From a virus, in IMG/VR virus record IMGVR_UViG_3300030380_006185, positions 1 to 64,000 of that record: 64,000 nucleotides of DNA; one strand, 5' to 3'. Numbering within the stretch: the first letter of the stretch is position 1; every line of letters begins with the position of its first letter. The translations under genes were made by a program, and so were the position numbers. The notes beneath the pieces were generated by a model. That model was not told where the DNA came from. It worked only from the letters and a program-made list of their open reading frames with translations, and searched no databases. Below are positions 10,240-49,137 of the stretch, piece after piece.

Positions 10240-11538
10240 TTATTTAATAATACCTGCCAATTTTTGCATTCTAGCGAACACGTCGTTAGATTCAACAATT
10301 GGTTTTTTAGTTGATGGTATTGTTGTCGCTTTAGAAGCTCTACCTAAGTTTTCTTTAATAGTTGATTTTTTAACTTTTAAACCTTCGCTTAAAGTTTCAT
10401 ATATCAACTTAGCTTCCTTAGTTGTATTTGCTTTGTCAAACGAGCTCAATACTTTTACTTTTTGACTTTCGTTCAAGTTTTTAGCCTTGAAAATTTTATT
10501 TGTGTAAAGAAGTTTTGCATTTAATAAATTAGTTGCATTAGTTTCTTTAACAGCTTCGTTTAAGTCAGATTTTAAAGATTCATTTTCAGCTTGAAGTTCA
10601 GCAACCTCTTCAGACATGTTATCTTTTTTAACATCATCTTTAAGATCTTTTGCTATATCAACAACTTCTTTTGCTGATTTAGCTTTACTGAGTTTACTTC
10701 TAATAGCAGCTACTGCTATTCCAGTTGCAGCGGAAACAAAAGGAATCATAGCTGCAATCATACCTGCAACTTCATGTGGAGCAGCATCTGTTCCAAACAT
10801 TACTGATTCTTCTACTTCTTCCATTTCTTCTGTTACTTCTTCATCTTTCATTTCTTCTTCAATCTCTTTTAACAATTCTGCTAAATCGACTTCTTCTTCT
10901 TCATCAGACATTTCTACTTCTTCATCTTCTACTTCATCTTCAACATCTCCACCTTCTAGTTCGCCAGAAGCGACCATATCAGCGATTACGTCTTCGATCA
11001 TTTTCTTAAGATCTTCATCAGTCATGTCTTCAAGATCAAGTGGTTCACCTTCTTCTTCTTCAGATTCTTCTTCGTCTTCGACTTCGTCTTCCTCTTCAGC
11101 TTCATTAAGTGTTTCATCTACTTTCTCTTTTTCTTCTTCTTCTAATTCAGCTAATAGTTCTTCCAAATCCATCTCATCTAAATCTTTTTCACCTTCAGGA
11201 ATATTTCCTTTCAATGAATCAAATCCTTGGTCGTCGTCTGCAGCTATCATTGGTTCAAATCCAGCTTCTTCAACTTCTTCTTTTGCTTCATCCACTTTAG
11301 AATCGTCTTCTTCATATTTCATTTCTTCTTCCATGGTAGTGTCATCTTCTTCATACTTCATTTCTTCCATACTTTTAGATTCTTCTTCATCCATTTCTTG
11401 AATTTTAGCGGATAACATTTCTTTTAAACGAGGTGTAAATGCTTCTTCTAGAGCTGTTTTAGCGTTTGCTATTGCCATTTCTTTTACGGCTTTAGCATCT
11501 GCGATTGCTTCTTTAAGCAAATCTCTGTTTGTTGCCAT
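10240..11538 (-). CDS. Prohead core scaffold protein (gp22 analogue); start moved to MATNRDLLKE at 11538
   Basis: Highly acidic coiled coil between protease and capsid genes; many L-x-E sites; C-terminal RMQKLAGI; the ORF-track extension runs through a structured leader. Confidence 0.8.
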   Translation of the reverse strand: MATNRDLLKEAIADAKAVKEMAIANAKTALEEAFTPRLKEMLSAKIQEMDEEESKSMEEMKYEEDDTTMEEEMKYEEDDSKVDEAKEEVEEAGFEPMIAADDDQGFDSLKGNIPEGEKDLDEMDLEELLAELEEEEKEKVDETLNEAEEEDEVEDEEESEEEEGEPLDLEDMTDEDLKKMIEDVIADMVASGELEGGDVEDEVEDEEVEMSDEEEEVDLAELLKEIEEEMKDEEVTEEMEEVEESVMFGTDAAPHEVAGMIAAMIPFVSAATGIAVAAIRSKLSKAKSAKEVVDIAKDLKDDVKKDNMSEEVAELQAENESLKSDLNEAVKETNATNLLNAKLLYTNKIFKAKNLNESQKVKVLSSFDKANTTKEAKLIYETLSEGLKVKKSTIKENLGRASKATTIPSTKKPIVESNDVFARMQKLAGIIK

Positions 11539-11559
11539 TTTTCCTAAATTTATTTTTGT

Positions 11560-11635
11560 TGGGAAAGTACGTTTATTTAAAAAACGTAATAGAATAATTA
11601 ATTGTGATGCCACATAGAATCGTGGCATATTCCCA
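11560..11635 (-). promoter_or_regulatory. Three-stem structured 5' leader of the scaffold/capsid operon
   Basis: Stems tgggaa/ttccca, tacgttt/aaacgta and atgccac/gtggcat. Confidence 0.6.
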
Positions 11636-11666: not shown

Positions 11667-12299
11667 CTACATTACAGGACAGGTGCCCTTAGCGCATAGT
11701 ATTTCGGTAATAATTGAATTAGTGCGTGCATATGGATGAAGGAATGTAGATCTAGATTCATTTAATTGACCATTTTTCATCCAAGAATCTGGGTTTGATG
11801 GGTTAGATACTAAATCCCAAGTAAGTAATTCAAAGTCATCTTGTACTTCCATTACTTCACCCATTTGTTTTAATGAACCCATTCCACGAGAAGATATACC
11901 TATAATTAAACCATTTTTAACTAATGCTCCTGCTATACGGCCAGATTCAGTTCCAAGTGGGCCTTCATCACAAAATATTTCTACTTTACCTATTATTTCA
12001 TCTCCATCCCATCTTAATTCTCTAATAGCGTGTGATGCATTTTTTAGGTTAATTACTTGTGAATCAGGATGATCTAGTTCACCACAAGTTTCTGTTGATT
12101 TTTGGTCTATTTTCTTTTGGAAATTACCAATTTCACGTTCCCATAACTCTTTTTTATAATATCTACCATTACCATTTTTAACTTCAACAGTAGCTAAAAC
12201 ACCTTCAACGAAAATATTTCCACCTCTGTTTAATCCTTCTACAAGTCGAACAGGACTTGGTTTAAATTGTCTAGTTTCTATTAAGAGTTCTTTGTTCAT
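11667..12299 (-). CDS. gp21: Prohead protease (T4 gp21 family)
   Basis: KNGNGRYY, GELDHP, NASH, GISSRGMGS, WDLVSNPS. Confidence 0.95.
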   Translation of the reverse strand: MNKELLIETRQFKPSPVRLVEGLNRGGNIFVEGVLATVEVKNGNGRYYKKELWEREIGNFQKKIDQKSTETCGELDHPDSQVINLKNASHAIRELRWDGDEIIGKVEIFCDEGPLGTESGRIAGALVKNGLIIGISSRGMGSLKQMGEVMEVQDDFELLTWDLVSNPSNPDSWMKNGQLNESRSTFLHPYARTNSIITEILCAKGTCPVM

Positions 12300-14122
12300 A
12301 TTTTATATTTACCCATTAGGTGTTGTTCAACAAATTCTATTTCTTCACCCATATAAGCAGGAAATTCAGAAAGAACATTTGCTAGGGCATCTTCATCAGA
12401 CATGTTACCACCTGCATTGTCTCTTCCTGTAAGTCTTTCAAACATTTCTTCAGCTTCATCAGCTACTCTCTCTAATGATTTTTGACGATAGTCTGTTGAT
12501 TCTACTCCTTCTTCAAGTGCATCATCTAATTCTTTTGCAGCATCAGCAGCTCTTTCTAGTTCATCAGCTGCCTCACCCGCTGCTGTAGAGGTTGCTTCTG
12601 CATCTTCACTTGCTATTTCAGAAATAGGTTCATCTTCATCAATTACTTCTTTTTTCTTTGGAGTAGATTTAGCTTTTTTAGCAAGTGCTTTTTCAATTTT
12701 TGCTTTAGCTTTTTCTAATTTTTTAATATCTTTTTGAAGTTCTTTAACTTTCTTTTTATCAGTTAAAGCTTTTAAATCTTCATCTTCATCTAATCTGTTA
12801 AGACGTGCACTTTTTCTTTCAATTAATTCAGCAATTTTTTCAAGTTTAGATTCAAATACTTCATATTCAGCTAATTTATTAATTTCAGCTAATTCTTTTT
12901 CTACACTTTCTCTAATTACTTTTCGGATTTTAGATTCATTTAATGATTCATTTTTAGGTGATTCAGGTTGACCCATTCTTTTTCTAAGATCTTTTTTAAA
13001 TTTTTCCCAAACTTCATCAAATCCATCATCCTCTTTATCTTCAAATACATCACCTCGTATTGTTGGGTTTACATCAAACATGTCTTGAACATCAAACATA
13101 CCCATTTGGTCTGCTTTATTGAGAACTCTCATTACCATAGAACTAGATAATCCTTCCTCACCTAAGTATTCTATGGCTTCTACTTTTTTCATGCCTTTAA
13201 TAGCATTTAAGTAAGTTCCCATATCTTGAGGATTTTTAGTATGTCTAGGTTCTGGGAGTTGGTAGGCACCCATTTCTCTATCAGCATATCCTTCTTCTAA
13301 TTCTTCATTAATTATAGAACGAACTACTTTACGTATTTGATCTTCTTCGTTAATTGATTCTTGAATTGGTTTTAACCTTTTTACTGAAACTTCAATAAAT
13401 TCATCATTCCAATCAAGTTGTGCATAACCACCACCAATATTAACAATAGTAGCTATACTACCATCAAATCTTACTTTATCACCAACTTTAAATGAATGGC
13501 TTTCTATTCCTTCATTTAAATTACCATATCCAGAAGACTTATATTTACCTTTAGGTTCTTTTGGTTCACCTAAACCAGGATGATCTACTGTGTATCCTAA
13601 ATCTTTTACACCAAATTGACCTTTTTCAGTGTAATATGTAGGGTTTTTTTCAAGATTTTTAATTACAATGGATTTTAATTGTTCCATTGTTTTATTTTCA
13701 TTTTTAGGATCCTTCATTTCAGTGTAGTATCCTTTCATAATCTGATCAAAGATTAAATTATCAGGATTTTTCTTATCCTCATAATCAAAATTCTTTTCAG
13801 CGTCTTCTTCTACTTGTTTTGAAGTTTTCTTAAGTTCAGCTTTTTCATCATCAAAGTATTCTTTTTTTGCTTCAGCTAAAAAGTTTTCAAATGCTACTTC
13901 AAATGATTCTTTTTTAGAAGGTGGTAATTGATTAATTGGTTCTAAACCAATAACATTTTCATTAATAAGGTTTTTAGTTTTAAGTACATTTGCTACTTCT
14001 GTATATGTAGCAGCGTTACGAATTAAACCAGGAAACTGTCGTTTAGCTTCCTTGATAAAGATATCTTTATGGCCTTTACCTTCTTTAATTAACAAATACT
14101 GGTCTTGTAATGTCTTTTTCAT
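12296..14122 (-). CDS. Putative prohead core/internal protein (modular, acidic)
   Basis: MKKTLQDQYLLIKE leader; repeated LNE/INE/LEE sites; embedded FKVGDKV module; lies between portal and protease. Confidence 0.6.
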   Translation of the reverse strand: MKKTLQDQYLLIKEGKGHKDIFIKEAKRQFPGLIRNAATYTEVANVLKTKNLINENVIGLEPINQLPPSKKESFEVAFENFLAEAKKEYFDDEKAELKKTSKQVEEDAEKNFDYEDKKNPDNLIFDQIMKGYYTEMKDPKNENKTMEQLKSIVIKNLEKNPTYYTEKGQFGVKDLGYTVDHPGLGEPKEPKGKYKSSGYGNLNEGIESHSFKVGDKVRFDGSIATIVNIGGGYAQLDWNDEFIEVSVKRLKPIQESINEEDQIRKVVRSIINEELEEGYADREMGAYQLPEPRHTKNPQDMGTYLNAIKGMKKVEAIEYLGEEGLSSSMVMRVLNKADQMGMFDVQDMFDVNPTIRGDVFEDKEDDGFDEVWEKFKKDLRKRMGQPESPKNESLNESKIRKVIRESVEKELAEINKLAEYEVFESKLEKIAELIERKSARLNRLDEDEDLKALTDKKKVKELQKDIKKLEKAKAKIEKALAKKAKSTPKKKEVIDEDEPISEIASEDAEATSTAAGEAADELERAADAAKELDDALEEGVESTDYRQKSLERVADEAEEMFERLTGRDNAGGNMSDEDALANVLSEFPAYMGEEIEFVEQHLMGKYKI

Positions 14123-14123
14123 T

Positions 14124-14555
14124 CTATTTTTCTGTTAATAGTTCTTTTATTTCTTTTAAATAGTTTTTAACTATTTCTATTGGTTGTGTGATATCATATG
14201 AACCAGCGTTTCCACCATATAATTCAATTGTATCATTTTTTGCATTAGAAACTAATGGTGTTATTTCATTCATTAATTTCTCAATTTCATCTAACCCAGC
14301 TATACGTTGTTTTTGGAAATCATTCATTTCCCATAATTTTTTCTTATCGTATGATTTGGGTTTTATATTAGGAACATTTTTAAATCCTAATTTATAGTAA
14401 TAAATATTCTTAGCTCCTTTAGCATTCTTATTTTTATTAAAAACAGTTGGAGTAGCATAGTTAGCCCCTTCGCCTGGGGTAAAAGAAGCGCCACCTTGGT
14501 TAGTAGCGGACATTTCTTTTAATTTATTTCTTACTATTTCTTTAATTCTATCCAT
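14124..14555 (-). CDS. Putative head-associated protein
   Basis: MDRIKEIVRNKLKE leader; head gene cluster. Confidence 0.55.
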   Translation of the reverse strand: MDRIKEIVRNKLKEMSATNQGGASFTPGEGANYATPTVFNKNKNAKGAKNIYYYKLGFKNVPNIKPKSYDKKKLWEMNDFQKQRIAGLDEIEKLMNEITPLVSNAKNDTIELYGGNAGSYDITQPIEIVKNYLKEIKELLTEK

Positions 14556-15442: not shown

Positions 15443-17350
15443 TTACTCGTGAATTTGATTTTCATCTAACAAAGAATTACCTTTTATTTCCTTTTCAAAT
15501 ATTATCTGTTTTCTTTGATTTTTAATATCATTAAACATTTTTTTATTCTTATTTCGTTTATTCTTTGTTTCAAGAGCTAAAGGGGATCCACCTTTATAAT
15601 TAGGTTTTATTGAATCTGATGAGTCATTATCTGTTTTCATTCCAACTGCTCCTATTCTATCTTTACCAAAAGCATTATCTTGGGTGTTTCTATTAGTTGC
15701 TTTTTCTTTTGGTCTACCTAATGATTCTTTATCTTCATCATACCCTTCAGGTACTTCTCCATTATCATATCTATTTCTACCATATAATGAAGCTAAATCA
15801 TGAGGTGTACCATATGATTTACCTGTTTCAAGTGGGTCATTTCCTTCATTTTCAATTTGGTTAATACGGAATTTACGTTTAGCATCTTGAGTAATAAGAC
15901 TTCTATATTCATCATATTCATCTTCACTTAAATGGAATATATGTTCATATACAAAATCAGAAGGCATTAACTTATTATCTAAAATTGAATTTGCTAATTC
16001 AACTTTTTCTTTCATTAGTGCTACTCTTTCTTGGTCATATATTATTGAAGGAGTGGTTAAATCAAGTTCAAAGTTTACTAGAGCATCATCTTTATAACCT
16101 TGTGTGTATAAATGTACTAAAGCAATTTTATTAAGTTCTGAAAGGATAATTCGTTGTATTCGTTCTATTGTACGAGCAAATCTAATATCTTCAGCAGCTA
16201 ATGTTGCTTTACCAGTTAAATCTTTTTCATAACCCATAAATGCTTTAGGTACTTTAAGAGCAGCAAATAATTTATCTCTTAAATATTCAACATCTTGAAT
16301 TCCATCCCACTGTAGACCAGCTAAATTTTCAATTTTAGTTGATGTATCATTACCTCTAACAGGAAGATAAAAATCTTCCATAAGGTTTTGCATATTATAT
16401 TTTAAATTATAATCACCAGTTTGTTGGTCAATATATGGAGTACGTTTCATTTTTGAAATTGTTTTCTGCATAAAGTTTTCTACTTCAGCAGGTGCAATAT
16501 TCCCAACATTTATATAAAACATACGTTTTTCAGGTGCTCTAACAATTCTATGAATTAACATAGCATCTTCCATCATTGTATACTGTTTAAACAGTTTACG
16601 AGCTGGTTCTAAGTATGATCTACCATAAGGCAAAAAGTTAGTATCTGAAAGTAACCTAAAATGGGCTACTTCGTAATTATCAAAATATATAGCTTTGTCA
16701 TTTTCACTATTACTATAATTTGAAGAGGGTACTGAATATTGACCTGAAGCAACATTAATACCATCTGGGTCAAATCTAAATCTAACATCACCTGGTCTTT
16801 CAGGATCATAACCATCTTGTCTTTCTATATGAAATGCATTGTAAGGTATAACATTATATACACCAAATTTTTCAGAAATTTCCAATTTTAAAAAGAAATC
16901 TCCATACTTACACATATTTCTAATCCAAGGCCATAAGTTAAACTCTATGTTTAATACATCATAAAATAAATTGTATAGAATTTTTTGAACATCTTCATCA
17001 GAACTTTTAATATGAAGTACTTCCCCCATATCATTTTTGAGTGTAGATTCATCAGAAATAATATCTAAAGCAGAAGCAATAATAGCATCAGTATCCATTG
17101 AATCATACTCAGAATAGAGTTGAGGACGCAACATTTGATAATTAAAACTATTCTGGTATCCATAAATGGAGGTGTTTGAATTAGTATAAATTCTATTAAA
17201 CCTATCAACTAAGGAATTAGTTTCATATTCACCTGAAACTTGAATTTTGTTTATATCAATTACTTTTAATTGATTGTCTCCATCATTTCTGATGATTACA
17301 TCAGTTGAAAATAATCTTCTTAATCTTCCAAATAATCCAGTATCTGCCAT
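15443..17350 (-). CDS. gp20: Portal protein (T4 gp20 family)
   Basis: MEDAMLIHRIVRAPEKRMFYINVGN, MEDFYLP.RG, YLRDKLFAALKVP, EDIRFARTI.RIQ. Confidence 0.95.
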   Translation of the reverse strand: MADTGLFGRLRRLFSTDVIIRNDGDNQLKVIDINKIQVSGEYETNSLVDRFNRIYTNSNTSIYGYQNSFNYQMLRPQLYSEYDSMDTDAIIASALDIISDESTLKNDMGEVLHIKSSDEDVQKILYNLFYDVLNIEFNLWPWIRNMCKYGDFFLKLEISEKFGVYNVIPYNAFHIERQDGYDPERPGDVRFRFDPDGINVASGQYSVPSSNYSNSENDKAIYFDNYEVAHFRLLSDTNFLPYGRSYLEPARKLFKQYTMMEDAMLIHRIVRAPEKRMFYINVGNIAPAEVENFMQKTISKMKRTPYIDQQTGDYNLKYNMQNLMEDFYLPVRGNDTSTKIENLAGLQWDGIQDVEYLRDKLFAALKVPKAFMGYEKDLTGKATLAAEDIRFARTIERIQRIILSELNKIALVHLYTQGYKDDALVNFELDLTTPSIIYDQERVALMKEKVELANSILDNKLMPSDFVYEHIFHLSEDEYDEYRSLITQDAKRKFRINQIENEGNDPLETGKSYGTPHDLASLYGRNRYDNGEVPEGYDEDKESLGRPKEKATNRNTQDNAFGKDRIGAVGMKTDNDSSDSIKPNYKGGSPLALETKNKRNKNKKMFNDIKNQRKQIIFEKEIKGNSLLDENQIHE

Positions 17351-17359
17351 TTTTTTATT

Positions 17360-18943
17360 TTATATTAGCCAAGAAATATCTTCTTCACCATTTGAGTAAG
17401 GGTTATCAATTTTATATGGGTTTTTAAAAGCACTATCACTAGAATAACCACCTGAGTATTTTGAGGTGTTATTGCTAATGTTATTAAGCATGCTTTTAGT
17501 CATGTCCATTCCTTGTTGTCTTAATTTAAATGCTGTCTCTCTTAAATAACAGCCAATAGAAAAAGATAAAACTAAATCATCATTATACCCTGTTTGGGCT
17601 TCAGCTCTACCGTTTCTCCATATAAATACTTTCATTTCCTCTAATAGTCGCACAGATCGAAATATAACACCACGATCCCGCACAGCTTCTTGGAATTTAC
17701 CAATTGCTATTGGTCTAGTATTTGAAGCCATTGTAAAACCAGGTGTCATTTTGCTATAATCCATATAAGGGTCAAAATAATTATCTACAGACATGCTATT
17801 GCCTTTAGGTGAATGATACAAATTTTGATAACCCCTATCAAGGATAGTTTGAATAGTTGACCATCCTATACTTGAATTTTCAGGTGCAAGTAAAGCATTA
17901 TTATATTCAGTTGCTATACCAACTAATAAATTACCAAAATCTTTTGTACCCATTTGACCTTTATATTCAGCAACTTGAGTAAATGTTTCAACATCAAATA
18001 CATGGAATGCTGAGTAGTCTTTTCCATCACCACGGGCAACATCAGCTACAACTAAATAATCTCTTGAGTAGTCAGCTGGCTCCCATACCCAAAGATTTTT
18101 ATCTGTTCCACGTTTTTCAAGTGGTTCTTTGACACAATCTTTTTCATAATAATCTATATTCTCAGGATAAAAAACAGTATCACCAGAGGTAGAAAAATCG
18201 CAATCACATTCTTGTGCTGCCATTCTTATTCCTAAATCGGCATCTTGTTGGTCTCTCCAAGCTTGGTCTCTTTCAGGATGTACTTCCCAAGGTAAACGTA
18301 TAGGTAAAAAACTATTATCACCTAATTCAGCCGCTACCCATGTTTTGTGGAACCAATTACCTGTACCATAGGGAGTAGATAATGAAATACACCCACCACC
18401 TGTTGCTAATGTTTGTTGAGCTGAGGCCCATATCTCACCTATATTATTAATAAATGCAGCCTCATCAATTATTAACAAAGAAACTGCTTCTGATCTACCA
18501 GCATCTGAACTTGCTGAAGTGGCTTTTATTTGAGAACCATTATTTAGTCTGAGGGTTAATTTATTGTCTTCGGATGGTTTTTGTTTTTCTTTAAGCCATG
18601 AGGGTAAGTTATCATACATAAACTTAACCTTTGTAACCATATTTTTGGCTGTTTCTTGTTTTGTTGCTATACAAAGTATATTTTTATCTTGGTTAAACAA
18701 CATCATCCATAATGAATAACCTGCTGTTAAAGTAGATATACCTAACTGTCTAGATTTTAAAACAATAGAGTAAGGATTTTCTTGAAATAAAGTTAATACT
18801 TTATCTTGAAATGGGTATAAATTAAATTGAATTCGACCTCGTTTAGGATGTTGTATATAACAATATTTACGCATAAAATGTGCGGGTGAAGTAGCACATT
18901 TAACATATTCTTCTCGTATTTTTTGTTTAAGATCTTGATTCAT
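17360..18943 (-). CDS. terL: Terminase large subunit (T4 gp17 family)
   Basis: KSRQLGIST, LIIDEAAF, STPYG, ADVARGDGKDYS, NDDLV. Confidence 0.95.
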   Translation of the reverse strand: MNQDLKQKIREEYVKCATSPAHFMRKYCYIQHPKRGRIQFNLYPFQDKVLTLFQENPYSIVLKSRQLGISTLTAGYSLWMMLFNQDKNILCIATKQETAKNMVTKVKFMYDNLPSWLKEKQKPSEDNKLTLRLNNGSQIKATSASSDAGRSEAVSLLIIDEAAFINNIGEIWASAQQTLATGGGCISLSTPYGTGNWFHKTWVAAELGDNSFLPIRLPWEVHPERDQAWRDQQDADLGIRMAAQECDCDFSTSGDTVFYPENIDYYEKDCVKEPLEKRGTDKNLWVWEPADYSRDYLVVADVARGDGKDYSAFHVFDVETFTQVAEYKGQMGTKDFGNLLVGIATEYNNALLAPENSSIGWSTIQTILDRGYQNLYHSPKGNSMSVDNYFDPYMDYSKMTPGFTMASNTRPIAIGKFQEAVRDRGVIFRSVRLLEEMKVFIWRNGRAEAQTGYNDDLVLSFSIGCYLRETAFKLRQQGMDMTKSMLNNISNNTSKYSGGYSSDSAFKNPYKIDNPYSNGEEDISWLI

Positions 18944-19661: not shown

Positions 19662-20486
19662 TTATTCAACTCCCCTTCCTGCTGCTCTATTTAAATCATC
19701 TAACATTGATTTTGTAAGCTTATATTCTTCTTTAGCTTTTTTCATATAGGCATCAATTTTAGGTTTATCATCTTTAAATTTCTTAATAAACTTTAATCCC
19801 ATATTAAATTTTTCCTTTTTTTCTTCTGGGGTAGATGATAAAGATTTAGCTGTTTCATCACTTGAAATATCAGCAGAAGATGGTCCTTCATCACTTGTAT
19901 CAGAATATTCTACTTTATCAAACCCATCATCATCTTTTGTACGTGTAGATGTTTTAGCAGTTCCTGCAGGGCGCCCTCTTTTACCTGATCCAGTTGATTT
20001 TTCTTTTTTAGGTTTATTAGGGTCTGCTTTTCTACCTCGTTTGCCAGGTTCTTTACCTAATACAGTATTAGCAGCATTTTTTTCAATTGTGTTTGTTGCT
20101 ATATCATCATTAAATTTATCTCCTGCTTCTTCTGCACCAGCAGCAACATCAGAAAGTAAATTTTGAAGGCTAATATCATGAGTATCTTTAAGTTCTTTTT
20201 TAAGATTTTTAACATACCCTTTTAATCGTTGATTATTACCTTCACCTGAAAATACTGGGTCTTTAGATAACTTTTCAATAGTAGCTTTTTCAGCTGCTTT
20301 AACAGCTTTAAGTTCACTATCCATATTTTGTTTTTCTAATTGATCTTTTAATTGTTTCATACTAGCCATTTCAGCTAATTGTTCAATTTCTTTTAATAAA
20401 TCAGAATCCTCAGCTACTGCAGGGATTTCATTTAATGCAGCATCAATTTCTTCTCTAATAATTTCAAGTAAACGAGTTTTTTTCAT
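19662..20486 (-). CDS. Putative internal head protein with AT-hook-like motifs
   Basis: MKKTRLLEIIREEI leader; KRGRK and KRGRP; late-promoter motif upstream. Confidence 0.55.
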   Translation of the reverse strand: MKKTRLLEIIREEIDAALNEIPAVAEDSDLLKEIEQLAEMASMKQLKDQLEKQNMDSELKAVKAAEKATIEKLSKDPVFSGEGNNQRLKGYVKNLKKELKDTHDISLQNLLSDVAAGAEEAGDKFNDDIATNTIEKNAANTVLGKEPGKRGRKADPNKPKKEKSTGSGKRGRPAGTAKTSTRTKDDDGFDKVEYSDTSDEGPSSADISSDETAKSLSSTPEEKKEKFNMGLKFIKKFKDDKPKIDAYMKKAKEEYKLTKSMLDDLNRAAGRGVE

Positions 20487-22819: not shown

Positions 22820-23590
22820 TTAGTCTAGATTAGGTTTTCTACCTTTTTCTTTATCCATGTCAATCATTGCTTTAATAGCAGCAGTGTTTGATGGTGAACC
22901 ATAATCTGGTCTTTTAATATCTTTCATATATTCCATTACTTTAAGGTTAAGTTTTTGGGCAGTTTCATCATCTAAAAGATTTAATGCTTTAGCTAAAGCT
23001 AATCTAGGATTTGTCATTTCGTCACTATCAAATAACATACGTACAGTACCCCTAACTGCAGCAGTTCTTCCAGCTCCATATTCATTTAAATTATCTTCCT
23101 CTAAATTTTTCATTACATTCAGATTAGGAACTAATAAATCTCCGGATGAATAGAATTTTTTGCCTGCTTTAGTATATTTATCATCCATTGCTTTTTTAAC
23201 AGGTACTTTTAATGGGTGATATACTTGAAATTCTTTAGGTAATTCAGTTGTTGGACCATAATGATCTGTTTTATTTAATACTTGCTTAAGCATAGGAGGT
23301 ATGTCCATAATTAGCTTTTTAATAGCAATTTGATTAGTATATCCTTTAATTAAATTATTGTATAAAATAGCAGAAATAAATAAAGTATCATTACCAGGGT
23401 TATATACTATATGATCTCCAAATCGTTTTCTGATTTCTGTTGGGAATGGGAGGATGTTTGGGATAAATCTTCTACCATCTCCTTTAGCCATTGATGAGGG
23501 TGATACAGAAGGTATTTGATAACTTTCTTCAATATCTTCACTTAAGATGCGAATAATTTCTTCTTTAATAAGTTGTTTTAAATTTTTCAT
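22820..23590 (-). CDS. Putative internal head protein
   Basis: MKNLKQLIKEEIIRILSE leader; internal LEE/LNE sites. Confidence 0.55.
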   Translation of the reverse strand: MKNLKQLIKEEIIRILSEDIEESYQIPSVSPSSMAKGDGRRFIPNILPFPTEIRKRFGDHIVYNPGNDTLFISAILYNNLIKGYTNQIAIKKLIMDIPPMLKQVLNKTDHYGPTTELPKEFQVYHPLKVPVKKAMDDKYTKAGKKFYSSGDLLVPNLNVMKNLEEDNLNEYGAGRTAAVRGTVRMLFDSDEMTNPRLALAKALNLLDDETAQKLNLKVMEYMKDIKRPDYGSPSNTAAIKAMIDMDKEKGRKPNLD

Positions 23591-23847
23591 TTTTTATATA
23601 TCTTTAATTTAAGACTATTATCTCCTTTTATAACACGGTGCCAATGGTGTCTTGGTATAAATATAAGATTATTTAATGAAGTTGGCAATTCATTATCAAG
23701 TTGTATTTTCCAGTTTGTTTCTCCAAGAATTTCTAAAGTTCGATCTTCATCATCACGATGCCATAATAATTCTATTGGATCTATATTTTCAGAAAATTCA
23801 CGAATAATATAGGAATCTGTAACTTCTATATCAGTGTAAGGTTTCAA
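23587..23847 (-). CDS. Cupin-like small protein
   Basis: WHRD.EDR...FIP...WHRVIKG cupin motifs. Confidence 0.65.
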   Translation of the reverse strand: MKPYTDIEVTDSYIIREFSENIDPIELLWHRDDEDRTLEILGETNWKIQLDNELPTSLNNLIFIPRHHWHRVIKGDNSLKLKIYKK

Positions 23848-24284
23848 GACTTTTTTTTATATTGTGCTTTTTTAGTATTTTTTACAAATTGTTTACCCTT
23901 TTTACCTCCCCTAACTTTTTTAGCTACAGTAGATTTTCTTTCTGCTTTAGTTAAAGATTGTGCTTTAGCTTTGGGTAAACAACGAGTTGTAGCTTTACCT
24001 TTTTTCATTGTACCACAAGGACCAGTTATGTTACCTGAGGTGTTAATACGGACCCATTTTTCTTTTTTAAACCAGTCACGTAAAGATTCTTTAATTATTT
24101 CGTGGATTTGTTCTTCTTTTACACCTTTCCAAATTTTACCTTTTCTACATCTAACTACAGCGCCTGATTTATAAGCAGAAGGTTTATCAAATTTACGATC
24201 AGCAATACGTAAACATCTGTCTCGTTTTTTCTTTTTTTCAGTAAGAACTTCTTTAATTATTTTTTCTAATCTACCCATTACCAA
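23844..24284 (-). CDS. Basic protein (DUF5872-like), putative DNA-binding head protein
   Basis: PSAYKSG, LRDWFKKEKW, RCLP.AKA..L motifs; LEKIIKE leader. Confidence 0.6.
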   Translation of the reverse strand: MVMGRLEKIIKEVLTEKKKKRDRCLRIADRKFDKPSAYKSGAVVRCRKGKIWKGVKEEQIHEIIKESLRDWFKKEKWVRINTSGNITGPCGTMKKGKATTRCLPKAKAQSLTKAERKSTVAKKVRGGKKGKQFVKNTKKAQYKKKS

Positions 24285-25453
24285 AATCCACTAAAGGATG
24301 ATTTTAAACCTAACAATTTAGCATAGCGAGGTAGTCTACAAGACCAGTATGATGCTTTTGTTCTATCTTTCTTTTCAGAACATCTATGACGTTTTGCAAA
24401 TGCTCGTCTTGCTTTAGGGTTATTAATTTTTGCTTTTAATCCACCAGAACCAAATGTAACTTTTTTAATACGTTTTGTTTTAGGATCTCTAACATAAACA
24501 TAATATGCCTTAGGACCACCACGTTTTGGTTTTCCTATAGGGGGATTTTTTTTCTTTTTCTTTTTCTTAGCTTCTTGAAGAGTAAAATTTGATATTGATC
24601 TATACCACTTTACTAACTCGTCATAATTCATATCAAATGCTGGGTAGTTAGGATCATTTTCAAATTTATCTAATTCTTTAGGGAATCTTTCTAACATTTT
24701 TCTAATAGCATCCATTCTGTTATTAGTAGCTTTTATAGTTTTACTAGCGTTAAATAAGTTGTCTTTAGGTAATTTCCAATCCCTATCCCATGTTCTTCTA
24801 TCTATACCATAACTAGCAGGTCCAGTGTATATGTTATTATCATCTTCCCAATCATCTTCCCAATCCAAATCTTCTGATTCAGCAAGTTGAATATCATCTA
24901 CTTTTAGAGGCTCTTCACCAACTATATATCGCACATCATTAAAAAGTGTGTCACGTATTATATCATCAATAATATATATTTTATTTGGGTCTAAGTTTTT
25001 AAAACTAGACTTATCACCAACAAACTTTACTTTATCACCTATATTAAAAGACTCATTAACTATATTTTCCATAGGTAAACCTAAAGGTACTTTTTTACCT
25101 TCATACATTCCATAGTTACCTAAGTCAGTTTCTTCTAAAATTTCTTTATCATCATCATTTACATGAATAATTTCACGTAAATATAAATAACGTGCTTCTT
25201 GCCATAAATTAAGGAAAGATTCGGAACCATAACGGAATGTGTTTTCGGTTAGTGGTAATTTATTTTGCACGTGATATTGCAGATTTTCCGATAGTATTTG
25301 TTTAGGAGCTTTATTTTCATTTAGTAACACACCTTCATTACCTACATTATCACAAGTATTGCAACCGCAGTTACAATCTTTCTTTTTTGGTTGAGTAGAT
25401 AATACTTCTTTTATTAAATTTGTTAAACGTGTCATATTAAAATAATTTATCAA
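24278..25453 (-). CDS. Modular putative head protein with basic C-terminal domain (likely start 25435)
   Basis: MTRLTNLIKE leader; modules bounded by L-x-E; KKVTFG...RRAFAKRHRC...ASYWSC C-terminus. Confidence 0.6.
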   Translation of the reverse strand: MINYFNMTRLTNLIKEVLSTQPKKKDCNCGCNTCDNVGNEGVLLNENKAPKQILSENLQYHVQNKLPLTENTFRYGSESFLNLWQEARYLYLREIIHVNDDDKEILEETDLGNYGMYEGKKVPLGLPMENIVNESFNIGDKVKFVGDKSSFKNLDPNKIYIIDDIIRDTLFNDVRYIVGEEPLKVDDIQLAESEDLDWEDDWEDDNNIYTGPASYGIDRRTWDRDWKLPKDNLFNASKTIKATNNRMDAIRKMLERFPKELDKFENDPNYPAFDMNYDELVKWYRSISNFTLQEAKKKKKKKNPPIGKPKRGGPKAYYVYVRDPKTKRIKKVTFGSGGLKAKINNPKARRAFAKRHRCSEKKDRTKASYWSCRLPRYAKLLGLKSSFSGFW

Positions 25454-28064: not shown

Positions 28065-28793
28065 TTATTCTTCTCCTCCAATGTACTCACCTACAAAGAA
28101 TTTTAAGGTGTTTCCTATTTGAGTAGTAAGTTTTTCGTTGTCCATTCCTTTGGATACTTTTAGAGCTGATATTAAGTGGTCCATAAGATCACCTTCATCA
28201 CCTTTCATATCAGCGGCTATATCTTCTAATCCACCTCCAGTTTCAGATTCTTCTTCAGTTTCTTCTTCTTCAGTTTCTTCCTCTTCAGGTGCTTCCTCTG
28301 TGTCTTCGGATTCATCAGTTTCTATTTCATCTTCTTCAGCTTCGTCTAAAGATTCTTCAAATGGTATACTACTAAGATAAGCTGCTATTTCAGCTTCTTC
28401 TTCTGCTTGTCTTTTTTGCTCTTCATAATCTATTTCTTCCTCTTCATCTTCAGGATCCATCATTTCTTCTAGCTCAATATCAGTTTGGTGTGAATGTTGA
28501 TAGTAAGATTTTTCATCATCATCATAATCACCATACATTTCTTCCTCACTTGTTCCTTCATAATCAAGTTCAGGATCCATTTCTTCACTTAATTCGTTAA
28601 TAATCATTTCACGAATTTTTTTACGTAAAGAAGTTTTCTTATCATCAGCCATATCTTTTTCTAAAGCATCAATGTGTTCAGCATCATCTGCTTCAGCATC
28701 TTTTTCATATTGGTTTTCCTTTAAATAAGGATTGGAATTTTCAATAGATTTATTTTCTACTAAAAACTTTTTTAAATCAAAGTTATCTTTCAT
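28065..28793 (-). CDS. Highly acidic putative prohead/internal protein
   Basis: MKDNFDLKKFLVENK leader; E/D-rich; late-promoter motif upstream. Confidence 0.6.
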   Translation of the reverse strand: MKDNFDLKKFLVENKSIENSNPYLKENQYEKDAEADDAEHIDALEKDMADDKKTSLRKKIREMIINELSEEMDPELDYEGTSEEEMYGDYDDDEKSYYQHSHQTDIELEEMMDPEDEEEEIDYEEQKRQAEEEAEIAAYLSSIPFEESLDEAEEDEIETDESEDTEEAPEEEETEEEETEEESETGGGLEDIAADMKGDEGDLMDHLISALKVSKGMDNEKLTTQIGNTLKFFVGEYIGGEE

Positions 28794-29468: not shown

Positions 29469-30041
29469 TTATTTCTTAAGATTTTTTAAATAATTAATTC
29501 CTTCTTCCATAGCTGTATTGGCACGGTTTTTGTCAATTCCACCAACCCATTTTTGTATATCACCCGCCTCTGTAATATAATTATTATTACTTTCAGAAAG
29601 CATATCTTCCATAAAACTTTTATATTCTTCAATATTAATATCTATTTCTTTATTAAACGTAGTATTAATATACTCTTCCCATTTACCTTCATTCTTTAAC
29701 TTTGTTTCAGTAGTTGCTCTACAGTCAACACATTCTCCATAAGCTTTATAGTAATGTGGGTCTAACTGTTTATCCATAACTTGTTTACAGTTTGGACAAA
29801 ATATTGGAACAGCAACGTTTTTAAATTTATCTAATTTTGTTATATTTTCTTTTATACCATCTCGAATAGTCCATGTTTTACCATCTTCTTCCCAAACATC
29901 ACCTTCTTTATGTGAAATTGATTCTTCACCATTATAACCTATACCAGTTGTAGTTTTATTACCTGTCTTACCTTTTACTAAATTTCTAAGGCGTTCTACA
30001 TCTCGTTTTTGGAATTGTTTTTTTAATACTGAATCTGACAT
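29469..30041 (-). CDS. Zn-ribbon hypothetical protein
   Basis: CPNC...CVDC. Confidence 0.65.
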   Translation of the reverse strand: MSDSVLKKQFQKRDVERLRNLVKGKTGNKTTTGIGYNGEESISHKEGDVWEEDGKTWTIRDGIKENITKLDKFKNVAVPIFCPNCKQVMDKQLDPHYYKAYGECVDCRATTETKLKNEGKWEEYINTTFNKEIDINIEEYKSFMEDMLSESNNNYITEAGDIQKWVGGIDKNRANTAMEEGINYLKNLKK

Positions 30042-30586
30042 TATATTTCTAGTTGTTTAAGTTGATCAATTGTATTTTCTGCTGATGTATATAATATTCC
30101 TATACCTCCTGCATTATTCCAATTATCAATTGTGCTTGCCTTATCGTCTATAAGTATGTCTGATTTGGTTAAAGATGGTTTAATTTTATGTTTTTCTTTT
30201 GCAGGTTTAAAATTAACTTTAGGTGTATTAGGGAATAAATCAGAATGGATTTTACGTAACCATATCATTTTCCCTAATCTTGATTGTTTTTTAATAGAAG
30301 GGGCAGTTAATATTTCATAATCATATTGTGAAACATAATCTACTAATTTTTTAGCCCCAGGCATTAATGGTATACCAGCCCAAAATCTAACTTTATTTTC
30401 TATATCTATAAAATCCCAAAATTGATTCATACCATATTTATCTCTATATTCATCAGGTGTCATTCCAGATAAATCTAAAAATCGTTGGTCAAAATCAGCT
30501 ATTACACCATCCATGTCTAAATAGATAGTATACGCAGATACTTCATTTTCTTTAATTAATTTATATAATTCAAATAAATTTGACAT
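30041..30586 (-). CDS. HAD-family 5'(3')-deoxyribonucleotidase-like phosphatase
   Basis: YLDMDGVIADF, ILTAP, ILIDD, W..AGG.GI. Confidence 0.85.
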   Translation of the reverse strand: MSNLFELYKLIKENEVSAYTIYLDMDGVIADFDQRFLDLSGMTPDEYRDKYGMNQFWDFIDIENKVRFWAGIPLMPGAKKLVDYVSQYDYEILTAPSIKKQSRLGKMIWLRKIHSDLFPNTPKVNFKPAKEKHKIKPSLTKSDILIDDKASTIDNWNNAGGIGILYTSAENTIDQLKQLEI

Positions 30587-30588
30587 GG

Positions 30589-33156
30589 TTAAAATTTAGG
30601 TAAACTTAATGCTTTTCTTCTACTTCTCCAAAGATTTAATATTATTTGTTTATCTTTAGGAGTAATATCTTGGGCATCTAAATAAGTATTTATTACATCT
30701 GCAAATGGTCTTCTTTCTTTTTTAGCTCTAAAATACATTCCTTGTAAATTAGCATCTACTTCTTTTGGTAATTTAAAATATTCAGCTTGTGGAATTATAT
30801 CAGCTTTTACTAAAGCTCGTATTGTCATATCAAAATCTTCATCAAAATCTTCCTTTTTAGTTTTTGAGTCACCTGATTGGGTTATGTGTTCAATTTCATG
30901 TCTTACAACATCTTTAAGATTCATAGAAATTTCTTCCCAAAATTTAGGCAACATTTCAGGATCAACTATAAAGTTTATTTTAATAAAACCAGGGTATTCT
31001 TTTTTCTTTTTTTTATCTATGTAAGCATAATCACTTCCACCATCTACTTTAAGTTTACCAAATTTGGGTTTGTATATTATTTGTGCATAAACTTGAATAC
31101 CTCTTGGAGGAAAATCATAATTATCTTCATATGTTGAATCCATTTCACCTTCATCAAAATCTTCTTTCCAAAAATTAAATATATCTCTTGAAATTTGGTT
31201 TGATAAGGTATCATAACGACCTTCTTCTAAAGTAGCTAATTCTCTAGCAAATTGATTTAAACCAAAAGGATCTTTACCTAAATTTTTATCAAATCCATGT
31301 TTATGCTTATATGGTTTTTCCTTTTCATTTAAACTAGTAACTTCTTCTCCGTCTATTCCATCTGTGTAATTTCTAAAAAGCATATTACCTTTTGTATATG
31401 CTTCTCTTTCTATATCATTTAAATAATCATCTTCCATTGTGTTAGTAGTACTAATATCTTTTAGTCTACCTTCTAAATTTTGAATATGATGAATCATTTC
31501 ATGAGCATATGATCTTACTATATCTTTAGGATGTCTACCTTCAGTATATAATACTATTATTTTATTGTTTGGATCATAATATGCAGTTTTACCTAAAAAT
31601 TTTTTAGCATTTTCTTCATTATTGTGCTTAAATATTATTTTAGGTAAAGGTTTAACATTCATACCTTTTTTTAACATATGATCTGTTAAATTTATAATTT
31701 CTTGCTTATAGTCTATATGATTAGAATATGTAGCATTTTCATTAAGTGGTTTATATCCCGAACCAAACGGAGCAGCTTTACCATTATGGTCAGGAGCAAC
31801 ATTTTCTTTTTTTAGTTCTGGGTGGAATTTCATATAAACTTCCTTAGCATCAGGTTTAATTGATTCATCATCTACTAATACTTCAACAGGATATACTTTA
31901 GCATCATCTCCATACCAATAGTTCATTTTATATCCACCTTCTTTAGTTAATTCAACAATTAATCCTCTATTATAGTCTTCACTTTCAGCTTGCAGGTATA
32001 TTTTTTTACCTCTTGGTAAAACTAAAGATGTTTTTTCTAAAATATCTTCATTTAAGTTTTCTTCTAAATTTTGATTTACAGGAATTTGTCTTACATCTTT
32101 AGGGCCAAAATTAGAAGGATAAGGTTCTATAATATTACTTATTTTAATATTATTTTCTTCCATAGTAATTTCAAATGGGGATGGGGAAACATTAGTATAA
32201 TAATCATAATAAAATTTAACTTTATCAAAATTAGTATCTATAGCTTCATTAGTTTTTTGTTTTTTTAAACGTTGAGTTTTTTTCTTAGATGCTTCTTTAC
32301 GTTTTTTAATATATTCAAAAGCAGAACGTAATTTAGCTTTCTTTTGAGGATCTTTTGTTCTACTTAAAGCAGCTCTTACTCTTTGGTGTATTAAATTAAT
32401 TACTTGAGATTGACGAGCATGAGATTTAGATTTAAAAGAAGTTTTATTTAAAGTATCTATTATGTCTTGTCTTGTAGAAAATTTAACTTTAACAGTATCT
32501 TTTGGATTTTCATCTGTATACAAACGTCTACCTGATCCTTTAGGTTTTTTACCTGTACCTTTTTTAGGATCACCTTCATTTAAAGTAGATGATGTTAAAA
32601 TATTCCAAATTTCATCTAGATTAGCATTAATAGGTATAAAAAATTTAAAAACTTCTTTATCATTATTCATTAATGCTTTTCTAGCATTAGTACCACTCAT
32701 TCCACCATCTGGGGTAGATGTTATTTTTAAATCTAAATTTGGATGTTTATCTATAGATACTGATCTAGCTGATATATCTTGCATATCATCTTCTCTTCCT
32801 TCTCTTGCTCCTATAATCCAATATATAGAATCTTCAGGATTGTCTTTAGCATATCTATAAATATCTCCAATTGGGGAAACTGATTTTTCTATTCTGACTG
32901 GTTTACCAATTAAAGGTTTATAATGTTCATCCCAAATTTTATATGCTTGATCTTGTGTAATCCCATCTCTTACTTTACTCCCAACATAAATTATAATATT
33001 ATCTATTTCAGGATTATCTTTTAAGGCATTTTGAATTACAGCTAAATGACCTGCAGTAGGTGGTTTAAATCCACCACCAAAAACAGCAGTAACCTCTTTA
33101 CCATCTATACTTTCAGGTAAAAGATCTTTAATGAGTGATTTAGTTAAGGAATCCAT
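30589..33156 (-). CDS. Multidomain protein: HxGH-type nucleotidyltransferase, basic domain and two HExxH metalloprotease-like domains
   Basis: FGGGFKPPTAGH...MSGT.AR; LYTDENPKDTV; AHEMIHHIQ; RHEIEHITQ. Confidence 0.75.
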   Translation of the reverse strand: MDSLTKSLIKDLLPESIDGKEVTAVFGGGFKPPTAGHLAVIQNALKDNPEIDNIIIYVGSKVRDGITQDQAYKIWDEHYKPLIGKPVRIEKSVSPIGDIYRYAKDNPEDSIYWIIGAREGREDDMQDISARSVSIDKHPNLDLKITSTPDGGMSGTNARKALMNNDKEVFKFFIPINANLDEIWNILTSSTLNEGDPKKGTGKKPKGSGRRLYTDENPKDTVKVKFSTRQDIIDTLNKTSFKSKSHARQSQVINLIHQRVRAALSRTKDPQKKAKLRSAFEYIKKRKEASKKKTQRLKKQKTNEAIDTNFDKVKFYYDYYTNVSPSPFEITMEENNIKISNIIEPYPSNFGPKDVRQIPVNQNLEENLNEDILEKTSLVLPRGKKIYLQAESEDYNRGLIVELTKEGGYKMNYWYGDDAKVYPVEVLVDDESIKPDAKEVYMKFHPELKKENVAPDHNGKAAPFGSGYKPLNENATYSNHIDYKQEIINLTDHMLKKGMNVKPLPKIIFKHNNEENAKKFLGKTAYYDPNNKIIVLYTEGRHPKDIVRSYAHEMIHHIQNLEGRLKDISTTNTMEDDYLNDIEREAYTKGNMLFRNYTDGIDGEEVTSLNEKEKPYKHKHGFDKNLGKDPFGLNQFARELATLEEGRYDTLSNQISRDIFNFWKEDFDEGEMDSTYEDNYDFPPRGIQVYAQIIYKPKFGKLKVDGGSDYAYIDKKKKKEYPGFIKINFIVDPEMLPKFWEEISMNLKDVVRHEIEHITQSGDSKTKKEDFDEDFDMTIRALVKADIIPQAEYFKLPKEVDANLQGMYFRAKKERRPFADVINTYLDAQDITPKDKQIILNLWRSRRKALSLPKF

Positions 33157-33901
33157 TTATTTTACTTTTTATTTGGTCTTGGGATGTAAATTCAGGTAAG
33201 TCTGAGAGTAGTTGTTTAATAGAGGATTCAAGTTCTTGTTGTTCAGCTTTCTTTTTTTCTATTTCTTCGTCACTATATTCACGAGCAGCAGTTACTTGAT
33301 CAAAATAATTTTGAACTTCTTTTTCATTATATGTTTTATCTACTCCTTTAGGGTCATTATTTACTAAAATAAAATTATCTCCAAACATGTTTTGAAAAGT
33401 ATTAATATTTTTATTTACTTTTTCCCAAGTACGAACTATAATTGAAGGGCGAAGTGATCTACCTCCTGCTTCTCCTCTAGATCTATTACGTTCTAAAGAT
33501 ACAAGTGGTGAAACATATATCATTACCATCATTGTATCATATCCTAAATCTTCTAATTGTGTTTTTTTCTTTAATATAGGATTTGAAGCTGCTCCGGTAC
33601 CATCAATTATAATACTTTCTCCCTCTTCTTGAGCAGATTGTAGTTTTGCTGTTGTTTCTTTACGAGCTCTACTCATTAATTTAGATGATTGAGACAATTC
33701 ATCTGAAGTAAAAGTTGATTGAGGTTTATCTAAGCCTGCTTGTTTAAGTAATTCTTCATATGTGTCATCTACATTAATTACTTTTAAATTAGGGATATTA
33801 TTTTTAATAAAAGTGGATTTACCACTTCCTGCAGGTCCAGCTAAAAATATGGCTTTAGGTGGGGATTGGATCTCTTTTAATAGTTTTACTAGACTTACCA
33901 T
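33140..33901 (-). CDS. Zeta-toxin/AAA_33-like P-loop kinase
   Basis: AIFLAGPAGSGKS, INVDD, IIDGTG, SLERN..R. Confidence 0.8.
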   Translation of the reverse strand: MVSLVKLLKEIQSPPKAIFLAGPAGSGKSTFIKNNIPNLKVINVDDTYEELLKQAGLDKPQSTFTSDELSQSSKLMSRARKETTAKLQSAQEEGESIIIDGTGAASNPILKKKTQLEDLGYDTMMVMIYVSPLVSLERNRSRGEAGGRSLRPSIIVRTWEKVNKNINTFQNMFGDNFILVNNDPKGVDKTYNEKEVQNYFDQVTAAREYSDEEIEKKKAEQQELESSIKQLLSDLPEFTSQDQIKSKINGFLN

Positions 33902-48385: not shown

Positions 48386-48790
48386 TTATAAATCTATTAT
48401 TATTTCATCAGAAATATTAGTACTAGGTACTGAGTACTTTATATTAATTGTTATTCTATTTTCTTCTGAATTTCCTGTTAATACAACATCATTAATATTT
48501 AAATTTGGGAAATTTGAATTTAATTTGTTATTAATATCTTCTCTTAAAAAATCTAAACTTTCACTATTAATTTGTTCAAAAATAAATTCTCTTAATCCAC
48601 CCCCAAATCCAGGATTAAGATATCTTTCTCCAGGATTTGTAAGAAAATAATTAATTAAACTACTTTTAATAGCATCTTTAGTTTGAAAATTTGGTTTAAA
48701 TACAGCATTACCATTTAAAGGAAGATTAATCCCTACAGCAATACTGTTATCTAAGTCTAAAGGATTTATTTGTCTAGCACCAAATGCCAT
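48386..48790 (-). CDS. Baseplate sheath initiator (gp25/gpW family)
   Basis: AIKSSLINYFLTNPGERYLNPGFGGGL..FIFE. Confidence 0.9.
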   Translation of the reverse strand: MAFGARQINPLDLDNSIAVGINLPLNGNAVFKPNFQTKDAIKSSLINYFLTNPGERYLNPGFGGGLREFIFEQINSESLDFLREDINNKLNSNFPNLNINDVVLTGNSEENRITINIKYSVPSTNISDEIIIDL

Positions 48791-49137
48791 TATTTAGTAT
48801 TTAAAAGTCCCATTATTGTGTCCATTCCAACTTCACCATTACCTAAATTTCCATTTACAGGATCTACTCCTTGTGGGTTAAAAGAAGAAACATCTCTACT
48901 AGTCATACTTATAGCAGTTTCACCTACTATATCAGCGTATTTTTGCTTAATATCCATAGTAGGTTCTGTATAAGTTGGTTTTGGTGATGGTGGTGGAGTT
49001 GTATTAGGTTGTATAGACTCTCTTACAATTTGTGTTTTAGGAGTTTTAACAGCTTCTAATAAAATATCCTTCAATTCATCTTGAATTGCTTCTTTTACTG
49101 CTTCTTTAATTAATTTTTTAAGTACTTCGGTTTTCAT
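48790..49137 (-). CDS. Hypothetical late protein with LIKE leader
   Basis: MKTEVLKKLIKEAVKE; own late-promoter motif. Confidence 0.55.
   Translation of the reverse strand: MKTEVLKKLIKEAVKEAIQDELKDILLEAVKTPKTQIVRESIQPNTTPPPSPKPTYTEPTMDIKQKYADIVGETAISMTSRDVSSFNPQGVDPVNGNLGNGEVGMDTIMGLLNTK

Follow-up and report, generated by a model that had tools for sequence, protein, structure and literature searches.

A candidate polyprotein gene of a marine T4-like phage with predicted head-protease sites at its module junctions

Does a tailed phage make a set of unrelated modules as a single chain and then take the chain apart with the protease of its own head? The question is raised by an open reading frame (ORF) at positions 30589–33156 of the DNA analysed here (the window), a stretch that covers the initial 64 kb of a phage genome of 156,273 bp (G+C 29.8%; IMG/VR record IMGVR_UViG_3300030380_006185). 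An earlier note on this DNA had described the ORF (P0001) as an 855-residue polyprotein with LNE-type sites between its domains, matured by the prohead protease encoded at 11667–12299. The ORF is real; it lies on the minus strand, starts with ATG and has homologues of 94–100% identity on other contigs. The phage is marine and T4-like. On the basis of the placement of the motifs, their conservation, their exposure in a structural model, their avoidance inside folded modules, the family of the protease and the occurrence of stand-alone equivalents, all of which were observed, we consider it quite probable that the chain undergoes cleavage of some kind, and we incline slightly to the reading that the polyprotein is cargo packaged in the head and cut by the prohead protease.

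We checked the motifs against codon coordinates, and all of those named in the earlier note were present in the order given there. In the N-terminal half these were LPE (residues 13–15), T-LNE (192–194), RRLYTDENPKD in module B, K-TNE (302–304), LEE364 and LNE368; in the C-terminal half they were P-LNE (471–473), HEMIH552, S-LNE (609–611), T-LEE (643–645) and HEIEH753. Modules A–G were defined by splitting the query at the candidate sites, with the following result.

Residues 1–15 (33112–33156, minus strand): N-terminal leader, an amphipathic helix ending in LPE, similar to the T4 capsid-targeting sequence (CTS)
Residues 16–194 (32575–33111, minus strand): module A, HIGH-motif nucleotidyltransferase, ending in LNE
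Residues 195–304 (32245–32574, minus strand): module B, basic and helical, isoelectric point 10.8, ending in TNE (a weak site)
Residues 305–370 (32047–32244, minus strand): module C, poorly modelled, ending in LEE-N-LNE
Residues 371–473 (31738–32046, minus strand): module D, small and beta-rich, ending in the conserved PFGSGYKPLNE
Residues 474–611 (31324–31737, minus strand): module E, compact and zincin-like, with HEMIH at 552–556 and with E583 and E585, ending in LNE
Residues 612–645 (31222–31323, minus strand): module F, a spacer peptide of 34 residues ending in LEE, with low model confidence over 603–634
Residues 646–855 (30592–31221, minus strand): module G, alpha/beta, with an invariant HEIEH at 753–757 and high model confidence

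Cutting at these sites is predicted to yield about seven pieces, which agrees with the six or seven products proposed earlier.

In comparison with 2000 composition shuffles, the 855-residue ORF contained 4 LNE against 0.28 expected (14-fold), 6 L[NE]E against 0.57 and 2 HExxH against 0.017; the looser [LI]xE showed no overall enrichment (11 against 9.6 expected). In L[NE]E enrichment the ORF ranked second among 213 ORFs, after the scaffold protein. Raw motif counting was dropped as proof, since a P of 0.005 among 213 ORFs would fail multiple testing, and the case rests on the placement and conservation of the sites and not on their count. The weakest site is KTNE, where P3 is Thr and [LIVMF]xE is kept in 2 of 11 aligned sequences.

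We located the sites on an AlphaFold2 model based on 69 collinear homologues (mean predicted local distance difference test (pLDDT) 74). The model contained four confident blocks (residues 20–190, 220–300, 477–602 and 645–855, with pLDDT > 90 for module G) and low-confidence segments at 13–17, 191–215, 302–312, 322–384, 390–394, 418–476 and 603–634. Seven of the eight candidate sites (13, 192, 302, 364, 368, 471 and 609) lay in segments with pLDDT < 50, and the eighth, LEE643, lay at a domain edge. The leader formed a helix at residues 2–12, followed by pLDDT < 50 at 13–17; the same low value was found over 322–384 at module C and over 603–634 at the spacer F. No site was buried inside a folded domain. 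The domain borders proposed in the earlier note therefore do coincide with gp21-type [LIV]xE sites, both in the linkers of the model and at the junctions of the homologues.

Inside the folded blocks of the query we found one [LIV]xE against 6.9 expected (P 0.004), and in its linkers 10 against 5.2 expected. Family-wide, the observed-to-expected ratios of [LIV]xE in the module interiors were 0.67 for A, 0.13 for B, 0.37 for E and 0.31 for G. The genome as a whole, taken as the control, gave 1.17; the scaffold reached 1.5 and the core protein 1.76. The kinase encoded next to the polyprotein was also depleted (0.25). Such a pattern is as would be expected for proteins that survive a protease while carrying designated cuts, beside proteins meant for degradation.

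A word-indexed search returned more than 4,600 matches to the polyprotein, with 3,439 cluster representatives at E ≤ 0.001; these relatives are metagenomic. We mapped the modules on 265 homologues, among which more than 40 architectures occurred and the order varied (A-E, A-B-E-G, A-G-E, A-E-F-B-G and others). Module B was found in 154 of the 265 and module C in 39. A [LIVMF]xE ended exactly ahead of module E at 92% of 126 unique junctions, exactly ahead of module G at 98% of 126, and exactly at the end of module D at 90% of 60; at the end of module A the figure was 62% exact and 90% within four residues. No conservation was seen in the seven residues that precede the junction motif (P10–P4). 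In alignment A1, site 471 kept its motif in 64 of 64 sequences with a variable P2 (N, K or E), and site 643 kept it in 94% of 63 aligned sequences, again with a variable P2. Retention was 83% at site 192, 78% at site 609 and 75% at site 13, and the non-junction control LDE180 kept the motif in 2%. Conservation of P3 and P1 with a free P2 points to a short recognition site that is under selection in the protein, and it fits the Glu-directed X-x-E motif of T4-type head proteases. The sites of the T4 head protease show a preference for Leu or Ile at P3. A DNA recombination joint was rejected as the source of the junction conservation, given the variable P2 and the use of L, I, V or M at P3.

The homologues also differ in what they carry. 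Relatives contain whole Fe/Mn superoxide dismutase (SOD), plastocyanin-family and Zeta-toxin-like kinase modules, each flanked by [LIV]xE, and NT5C nucleotidase and SET domains also occur as modules. Homologues with extra modules include P0015, P0201, P0280, P0344 and P0365. The genes that neighbour the polyprotein in the window (kinase and nucleotidase) are sometimes fused into the same chain in relatives; P0344 and P0365, for example, join the nucleotidase to module E. Because the SOD, plastocyanin-family and kinase modules are unrelated in activity and stand alone elsewhere, their release as separate products is plausible. About 85% of the homologues begin with an amphipathic leader of 13–20 residues ending in L(N/P/E)E, and the leaderless members of the family start about 2 residues past the LNE site of the leader. 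Within the phage collection searched, the Flavobacterium phages vB_FspM_immuto (host Flavobacterium sp. LMO8) were the only cultured relatives. A proteome of phage immuto or of another relative was looked for and not found. The immuto homologue (gene immuto35A_182; L001 5179–7902, MW353176) has 907 residues and is annotated as "nicotinamide mononucleotide adenylyltransferase" (NMNAT). It has an additional N-terminal module of about 290 residues ahead of the nucleotidyltransferase, and its junctions read LAE/A, LPE/G and MAE/GRYD (a slash marks the candidate cut).

Some of the modules are also found as stand-alone genes. At the syntenic locus of a related 136.7-kb phage contig (L002), module G is encoded by a gene of its own (209 residues) that begins with M-GVYD, exactly at the P1' of LEE/GRYD in the query, and module E is encoded by a gene of 137 residues that begins with MKPLIE-NSTYS. 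The kinase of this contig has a leader ending in LKE, and its HAD nucleotidase has no leader. In P0201 the kinase is an internal module, and IKE precedes it at the position equivalent to the LKE of the stand-alone kinase leader. By comparison of these sequences, genes split, fuse and lose leaders precisely at the candidate sites.

Which protease might read such sites? The genes of the T4-type head module that bear on this question, together with the two neighbours of the polyprotein gene, are as follows.

8558–10213: major capsid protein, T4-type head module
10240–11628, minus strand: acidic scaffold-like protein, T4-type head module
11667–12299, minus strand: prohead protease of the T4 gp21 family, 210 residues (Pfam PF03420 Peptidase_S77; phrog_207)
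12296–14122, minus strand: core-like protein, 608 residues, adjoining the protease, T4-type head module
15443–17350: portal, T4-type head module
17360–18943: large terminase, T4-type head module
30041–30586, minus strand: HAD 5'-nucleotidase, downstream of the polyprotein (phrog_2643)
33140–33901, minus strand: P-loop kinase (Zeta-toxin/AAA_33-like), upstream of the polyprotein

The assignment of 11667–12299 as a protease, on which the earlier note relied, was confirmed by PF03420 (E 5e-25; 88.5 bits against a cut-off of 27), and by tblastn the gene matches gp21 genes of T4-like phages in 2589 phage records. Proteases related to gp21 cut after Glu at X-x-E, remove N-terminal CTS leaders of 10–20 residues and trim their own C-terminus (PMC5694885). 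The protease of the window has an LNE at 179–181 of its 210 residues, 30 residues from the C-terminus and conserved in phage immuto, which by analogy fits the C-terminal self-cleavage of its relatives. Enzymes of the gp21 type may become active only on prohead assembly or after loss of their C-terminal tail.

The motif is concentrated in proteins of the head. The scaffold-like protein, core-like protein, protease and polyprotein hold 10 of the 18 LNE of the window ORFs in 12% of the residues. The scaffold-like protein contains 6 L[NE]E (P 2e-4) and is the most L[NE]E-enriched ORF of the genome; the core-like protein has a "LIKE" leader and 4 L[NE]E sites. The SSGYGNLNE of the core-like protein resembles the GSGYKPLNE of the polyprotein, and its GKYKSSGYGNLNE resembles the GKAAPFGSGYKPLNE of the polyprotein. 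The pattern [SA]G[YF]xx[LIV]xE has two matches in the genome, one in each of these proteins; an extended motif common to both is suggestive, but about 0.5 matches are expected by chance. The major capsid protein contains VTE/ASATNQGGG and a 143-residue protein of the head module (14124–14555) contains LKE/MSATNQGGA; the common SATNQGG after [LIV]xE suggests homologous mature N-termini after predicted cleavage. In phage immuto the site of the major capsid protein is conserved as VSE/ANVTG. A comparison of P2 between head proteins and polyprotein junctions of the window phage and immuto was uninformative on co-variation, P2 being too diverse in both.

Leaders of this kind are common in the genome. 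At N-terminal positions 6–16, [LIV]xE occurs in 64 of the 213 ORFs against 19% expected (P 6e-5, genome-wide), and in about 20 ORFs the leaders are nearly identical and end in LNE. At 97666–101286 (outside the window), and also 140646–141017, some 10 small genes in a tandem cluster have unrelated payloads behind near-identical leaders of two classes, both with LNE at the end: "MKHSQLKQLIKEEI...LNE" and "MK(E/N)FNLKKYLAENKLLNE". In T4, the internal-protein genes share near-identical leaders, and the leaders of head cargo are removed by the protease (PMC3012670). The cluster at 97.7–101.3 kb strongly resembles that locus. The two neighbours of the polyprotein gene also have leaders: the kinase a 10-residue one (MVSLVKLLKE) and the HAD nucleotidase a 13-residue one ending in IKE. 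Amphipathic leaders of the "LIKE" type ending in [LIV]xE were seen in ORFs 19662–20486, 22820–23590, 23844–24284, 24278–25453, 28065–28793 and 48790–49137, which by their leaders are candidates for additional head cargo. One trans-acting head protease would explain the leaders, junctions and scaffold sites together.

These observations suggest the following course of events. The N-terminal amphipathic leader, which is similar to the T4 CTS, would bring the 98-kDa chain into the assembling prohead, where the gp21-family serine protease would cut after the Glu of [L/I/V]-x-E at the exposed linkers; that cleavage takes place inside the capsid by this enzyme is a proposition to which we give a little more credence than to its opposite. 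The cuts would remove the leader and release about seven pieces: the HIGH-type nucleotidyltransferase, the very basic module, two small modules, the compact zincin, the 34-residue spacer and the second HExxH module. The released pieces would stay inside the capsid until they passed into the next host together with the DNA. With protease sites at its borders, each module could be added, lost or re-ordered without harm to its neighbours, which would explain the extreme shuffling. Extended to the whole family, the reading is that thousands of variants in marine T4-like phages pack a "toolkit" polyprotein of which the head protease cuts every junction, so that the protease sites serve as evolutionary plug-in joints, and on this extension our judgement is evenly balanced. 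A single leader would then deliver a changeable, ready-made set of nucleotidyltransferase, zincins, kinase, SOD and cupredoxin (plastocyanin-family) modules.

In regards to module A, the nucleotide-binding motifs T-A-G-H 34–37 (HxGH type) and S-G-T-N-A-R 154–159 (ISSTxxR type) are present, and conservation of H37 and R159 in the family is 90% or higher. The fold is that of the HIGH nucleotidyltransferase superfamily by Foldseek (NadD, E 1.6e-5 and TM 0.66; PPAT, TM 0.78). The Pfam CTP_transf_like and NCBIfam NMNAT models matched below their cut-offs only, and for the NMNAT models the scores were 20.4 bits against 112 (TIGR00482), 15.3 against 181 (TIGR01527) and 12.1 against 341 (nadR_NMN_Atrans), with about 40 N-terminal residues aligned. 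As every curated NMNAT model failed by this wide margin, the annotation of the immuto homologue stands unconfirmed, and the fold does not single out a substrate for module A, PPAT fitting as well as or better than NadD. A NadR-like pairing of module A with the neighbouring kinase was rejected, as the match of the kinase is generic (Zeta_toxin/AAA_33) and no NadR-type kinase model was among the matches listed. A role of the two in NAD salvage is speculation.

The earlier note had also proposed two zinc-dependent effectors. Both HExxH motifs are invariant. In module E the residues H552, E553, H556, E583 and E585 are invariant, and the AlphaFold topology is a helix, three strands, the HExxH helix and a Glu-bearing helix. 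Its fold matches by VIA (Z 5–7.3) are mostly zincins, Foldseek gave minigluzincins, IrrE and SprT at E of about 0.1, models of phage proteins like IrrE and SprT matched at 1e-5 to 1e-2, and Pfam gave sub-threshold matches only (DUF6782, M91 and MPTase-PolyVal). These fold matches are weak but consistent with a zincin. In module G, D776 and E799 are near-invariant and the order of helix, sheet and HExxH helix is compatible with a zincin. The Foldseek and VIA lists were dominated by matches of module E, the query having included G together with E, and searches of the atlas and BFVD structures returned uncharacterised phage relatives only. Modules B, C, D, F and G had no significant family match in Pfam, PHROGs, NCBIfam or the PDB sequence profile. 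Zinc dependence is thus plausible, and the term "effector" did not find support.

Several points weigh against packaging and cleavage in the head. The polyprotein gene lies outside the head module: it is flanked by primase, exonuclease and kinase genes and, on its other side, by the 5'-nucleotidase gene. The homologues are related to one another, and the junction percentages overstate the number of independent events. Compared with the genome rate of LNE (0.97 per 1000 residues) the excess in the ORF is modest, the Poisson P for L[NE]E being 0.005. Thirty-five homologues (about 15%) lack a leader and still keep the junction sites. Where module E has a gene of its own, MKPL(I/T)E is retained directly before the mature start, which leaves no room for a targeting leader; therefore the conserved Glu may serve module E itself. 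The plastocyanin-family and SOD modules, finally, would seem more useful if made in bulk in the cell than if injected in tens of copies.

Cytoplasmic release would suit the latter two modules, and the polyprotein might process itself: the embedded zincin (E, perhaps also G) would cut the junctions in the cytoplasm or after injection, with no part for the prohead protease. A zincin metallopeptidase is the hub domain of the polyvalent proteins and has been proposed to process them (Iyer et al. 2017, PMC5512222), and 5 of 47 members of the present family give sub-threshold MPTase-PolyVal matches. Module E occurs in 261 of the 265 homologues, and a [LIV]xE stands ahead of it in every case, with E473 invariant in the family; the near-ubiquity of E is, however, partly a selection bias, since E is part of the query against which the homologues were ranked for similarity. 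The leaderless chains with their retained sites and the MKPLxE of the stand-alone E genes can also be read in this way. The form of the sites argues in the other direction. P3 and P1 = Glu are conserved across the types of junction while P1' differs (N, G, D, K or A), which is the pattern of the gp21 family, whereas cleavage by zincins is mostly driven by P1'. LNE also ends the leaders of the roughly 20 small stand-alone genes and is enriched in the scaffold and core proteins, which have no zincin, so that a single trans-acting head protease is the more economical explanation. The split-gene phage L002 still keeps module E, and therefore E has a role besides cutting its own chain. We regard self-processing as unlikely.

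The chain might also stay intact as a multidomain enzyme; [LIV]xE would then be favoured in linkers, serve for docking or be left behind by recombination joints. The immuto record treats the homologous gene as a single enzyme, and the N4 virion RNA polymerase and ArdC are polyvalent proteins that are transferred uncut (PMC5512222). L, I, K, N and E are moreover common in this AT-rich genome, where [LIV]xE is slightly over-represented everywhere (the genome-wide ratio given above). A near-invariant P3 and P1 in otherwise unconserved, disordered linkers nevertheless call for a sequence-specific reader, the free P2 and the alternation at P3 place the conservation at the level of the protein and not of a DNA joint, and a mere linker preference sits badly with the depletion of the motif inside folded modules. 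Some modules moreover begin at the site as separate genes, and the free re-ordering of modules argues against a fixed inter-domain machine. An uncleaved enzyme thus seems quite unlikely, and cutting by the head protease is the reading that we prefer.

The genomic setting adds the following details. The called genes of the 156-kb contig are nearly all on the minus strand, and the end of the kinase gene overlaps the start of the polyprotein gene by 17 nt. The T4 late-promoter word TATAAATA occurs 33 times against 22 expected, and none lies upstream of the polyprotein operon, which is uninformative on the timing of expression. The gene order in immuto matches that of the window: primase, exonuclease, a hypothetical gene in the place of the kinase, the polyprotein homologue and the 5'-nucleotidase. 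In L002 a SegE-type GIY-YIG homing-endonuclease gene (1820–2278) immediately precedes the primase gene, a position at which the window lacks such a gene.

If the preferred reading is true, the T4 paradigm, in which each leader has a single cargo and a single cut, extends to a polyprotein logic in tailed dsDNA phages, which would explain how injected enzymes are swapped freely among thousands of marine phages. It would also supply a sequence rule for the injected proteome of uncultured phages, consisting of a [LIV]xE leader, junction sites and avoidance inside domains, and a concrete, testable alternative to the proposal that the metallopeptidases of polyvalent proteins cut the chains in which they lie. 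The modules would be candidates for very early functions in host take-over or counter-defence. As the same gene is present in a cultured relative, Flavobacterium phage immuto, the question is directly testable.

The individual parts of the scheme are known: the T4-type leader with gp21 processing, the multi-site processing of giant phages, and the polyvalent proteins. A shuffled enzyme polyprotein with a head-protease motif at every junction, site avoidance and stand-alone genes that start at the sites was not found described in the literature searched. The T4 internal proteins IPI, IPII and IPIII and Alt have a CTS and are processed by gp21, and a protease of the same family (S77) is encoded in the window genome. 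They likewise have a short amphipathic leader ending in [L/I]xE with variable payloads behind a conserved leader; the kinase leader MVSLVKLLKE is like the T4 CTS in its 10 residues and terminal Glu, and the very basic module B recalls the basicity and DNA association of the T4 internal proteins. T4 cargo, however, has one payload per leader, whereas the polyprotein has up to seven or more unrelated modules behind one leader, with sites at every junction. Unlike T4-type cargo, its gene lies outside the head/late cluster.

Polyvalent proteins (Iyer, Burroughs, Anand, de Souza and Aravind 2017, PMC5512222) similarly combine domains of disparate activity with extreme mosaicism, a hub of one to several zincin-like metallopeptidase modules and predicted delivery with the DNA, and the description of their MPTase (helix, three strands, HExxH helix and Glu helix) is matched by module E. 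Pfam MPTase-PolyVal (PF18818) was matched by 5 of 47 members with a best E of 3.8e-4, below the gathering score; LPD23 was a feature-space lead only (0.88), and the Pfam LPD models were otherwise below threshold. HIGH nucleotidyltransferase, SOD and plastocyanin-family modules were not found in term searches of PMC5512222. In polyvalent proteins the embedded metallopeptidases are the proposed cutters, and no junction motif is defined in that paper, whereas the polyprotein has an [LIV]xE in agreement with the motif of the head protease.

In giant phages (phiKZ, 201phi2-1 and SPN3US) a gp21-related protease cuts after Glu at X-x-E with several sites per substrate, and many of their head-internal proteins are ejected into the host (PMC5694885, PMC10052503). 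Their additional cuts fragment long N-terminal propeptides that are discarded, leaving one mature protein, whereas here each predicted fragment corresponds to a folded module. RNA-virus polyproteins likewise give several mature proteins from one translation product through short conserved motifs in linkers. In comparison with these, the present system belongs to a dsDNA tailed phage, its products would be accessory rather than part of core replication, and its protease is separately encoded and would act inside the capsid.

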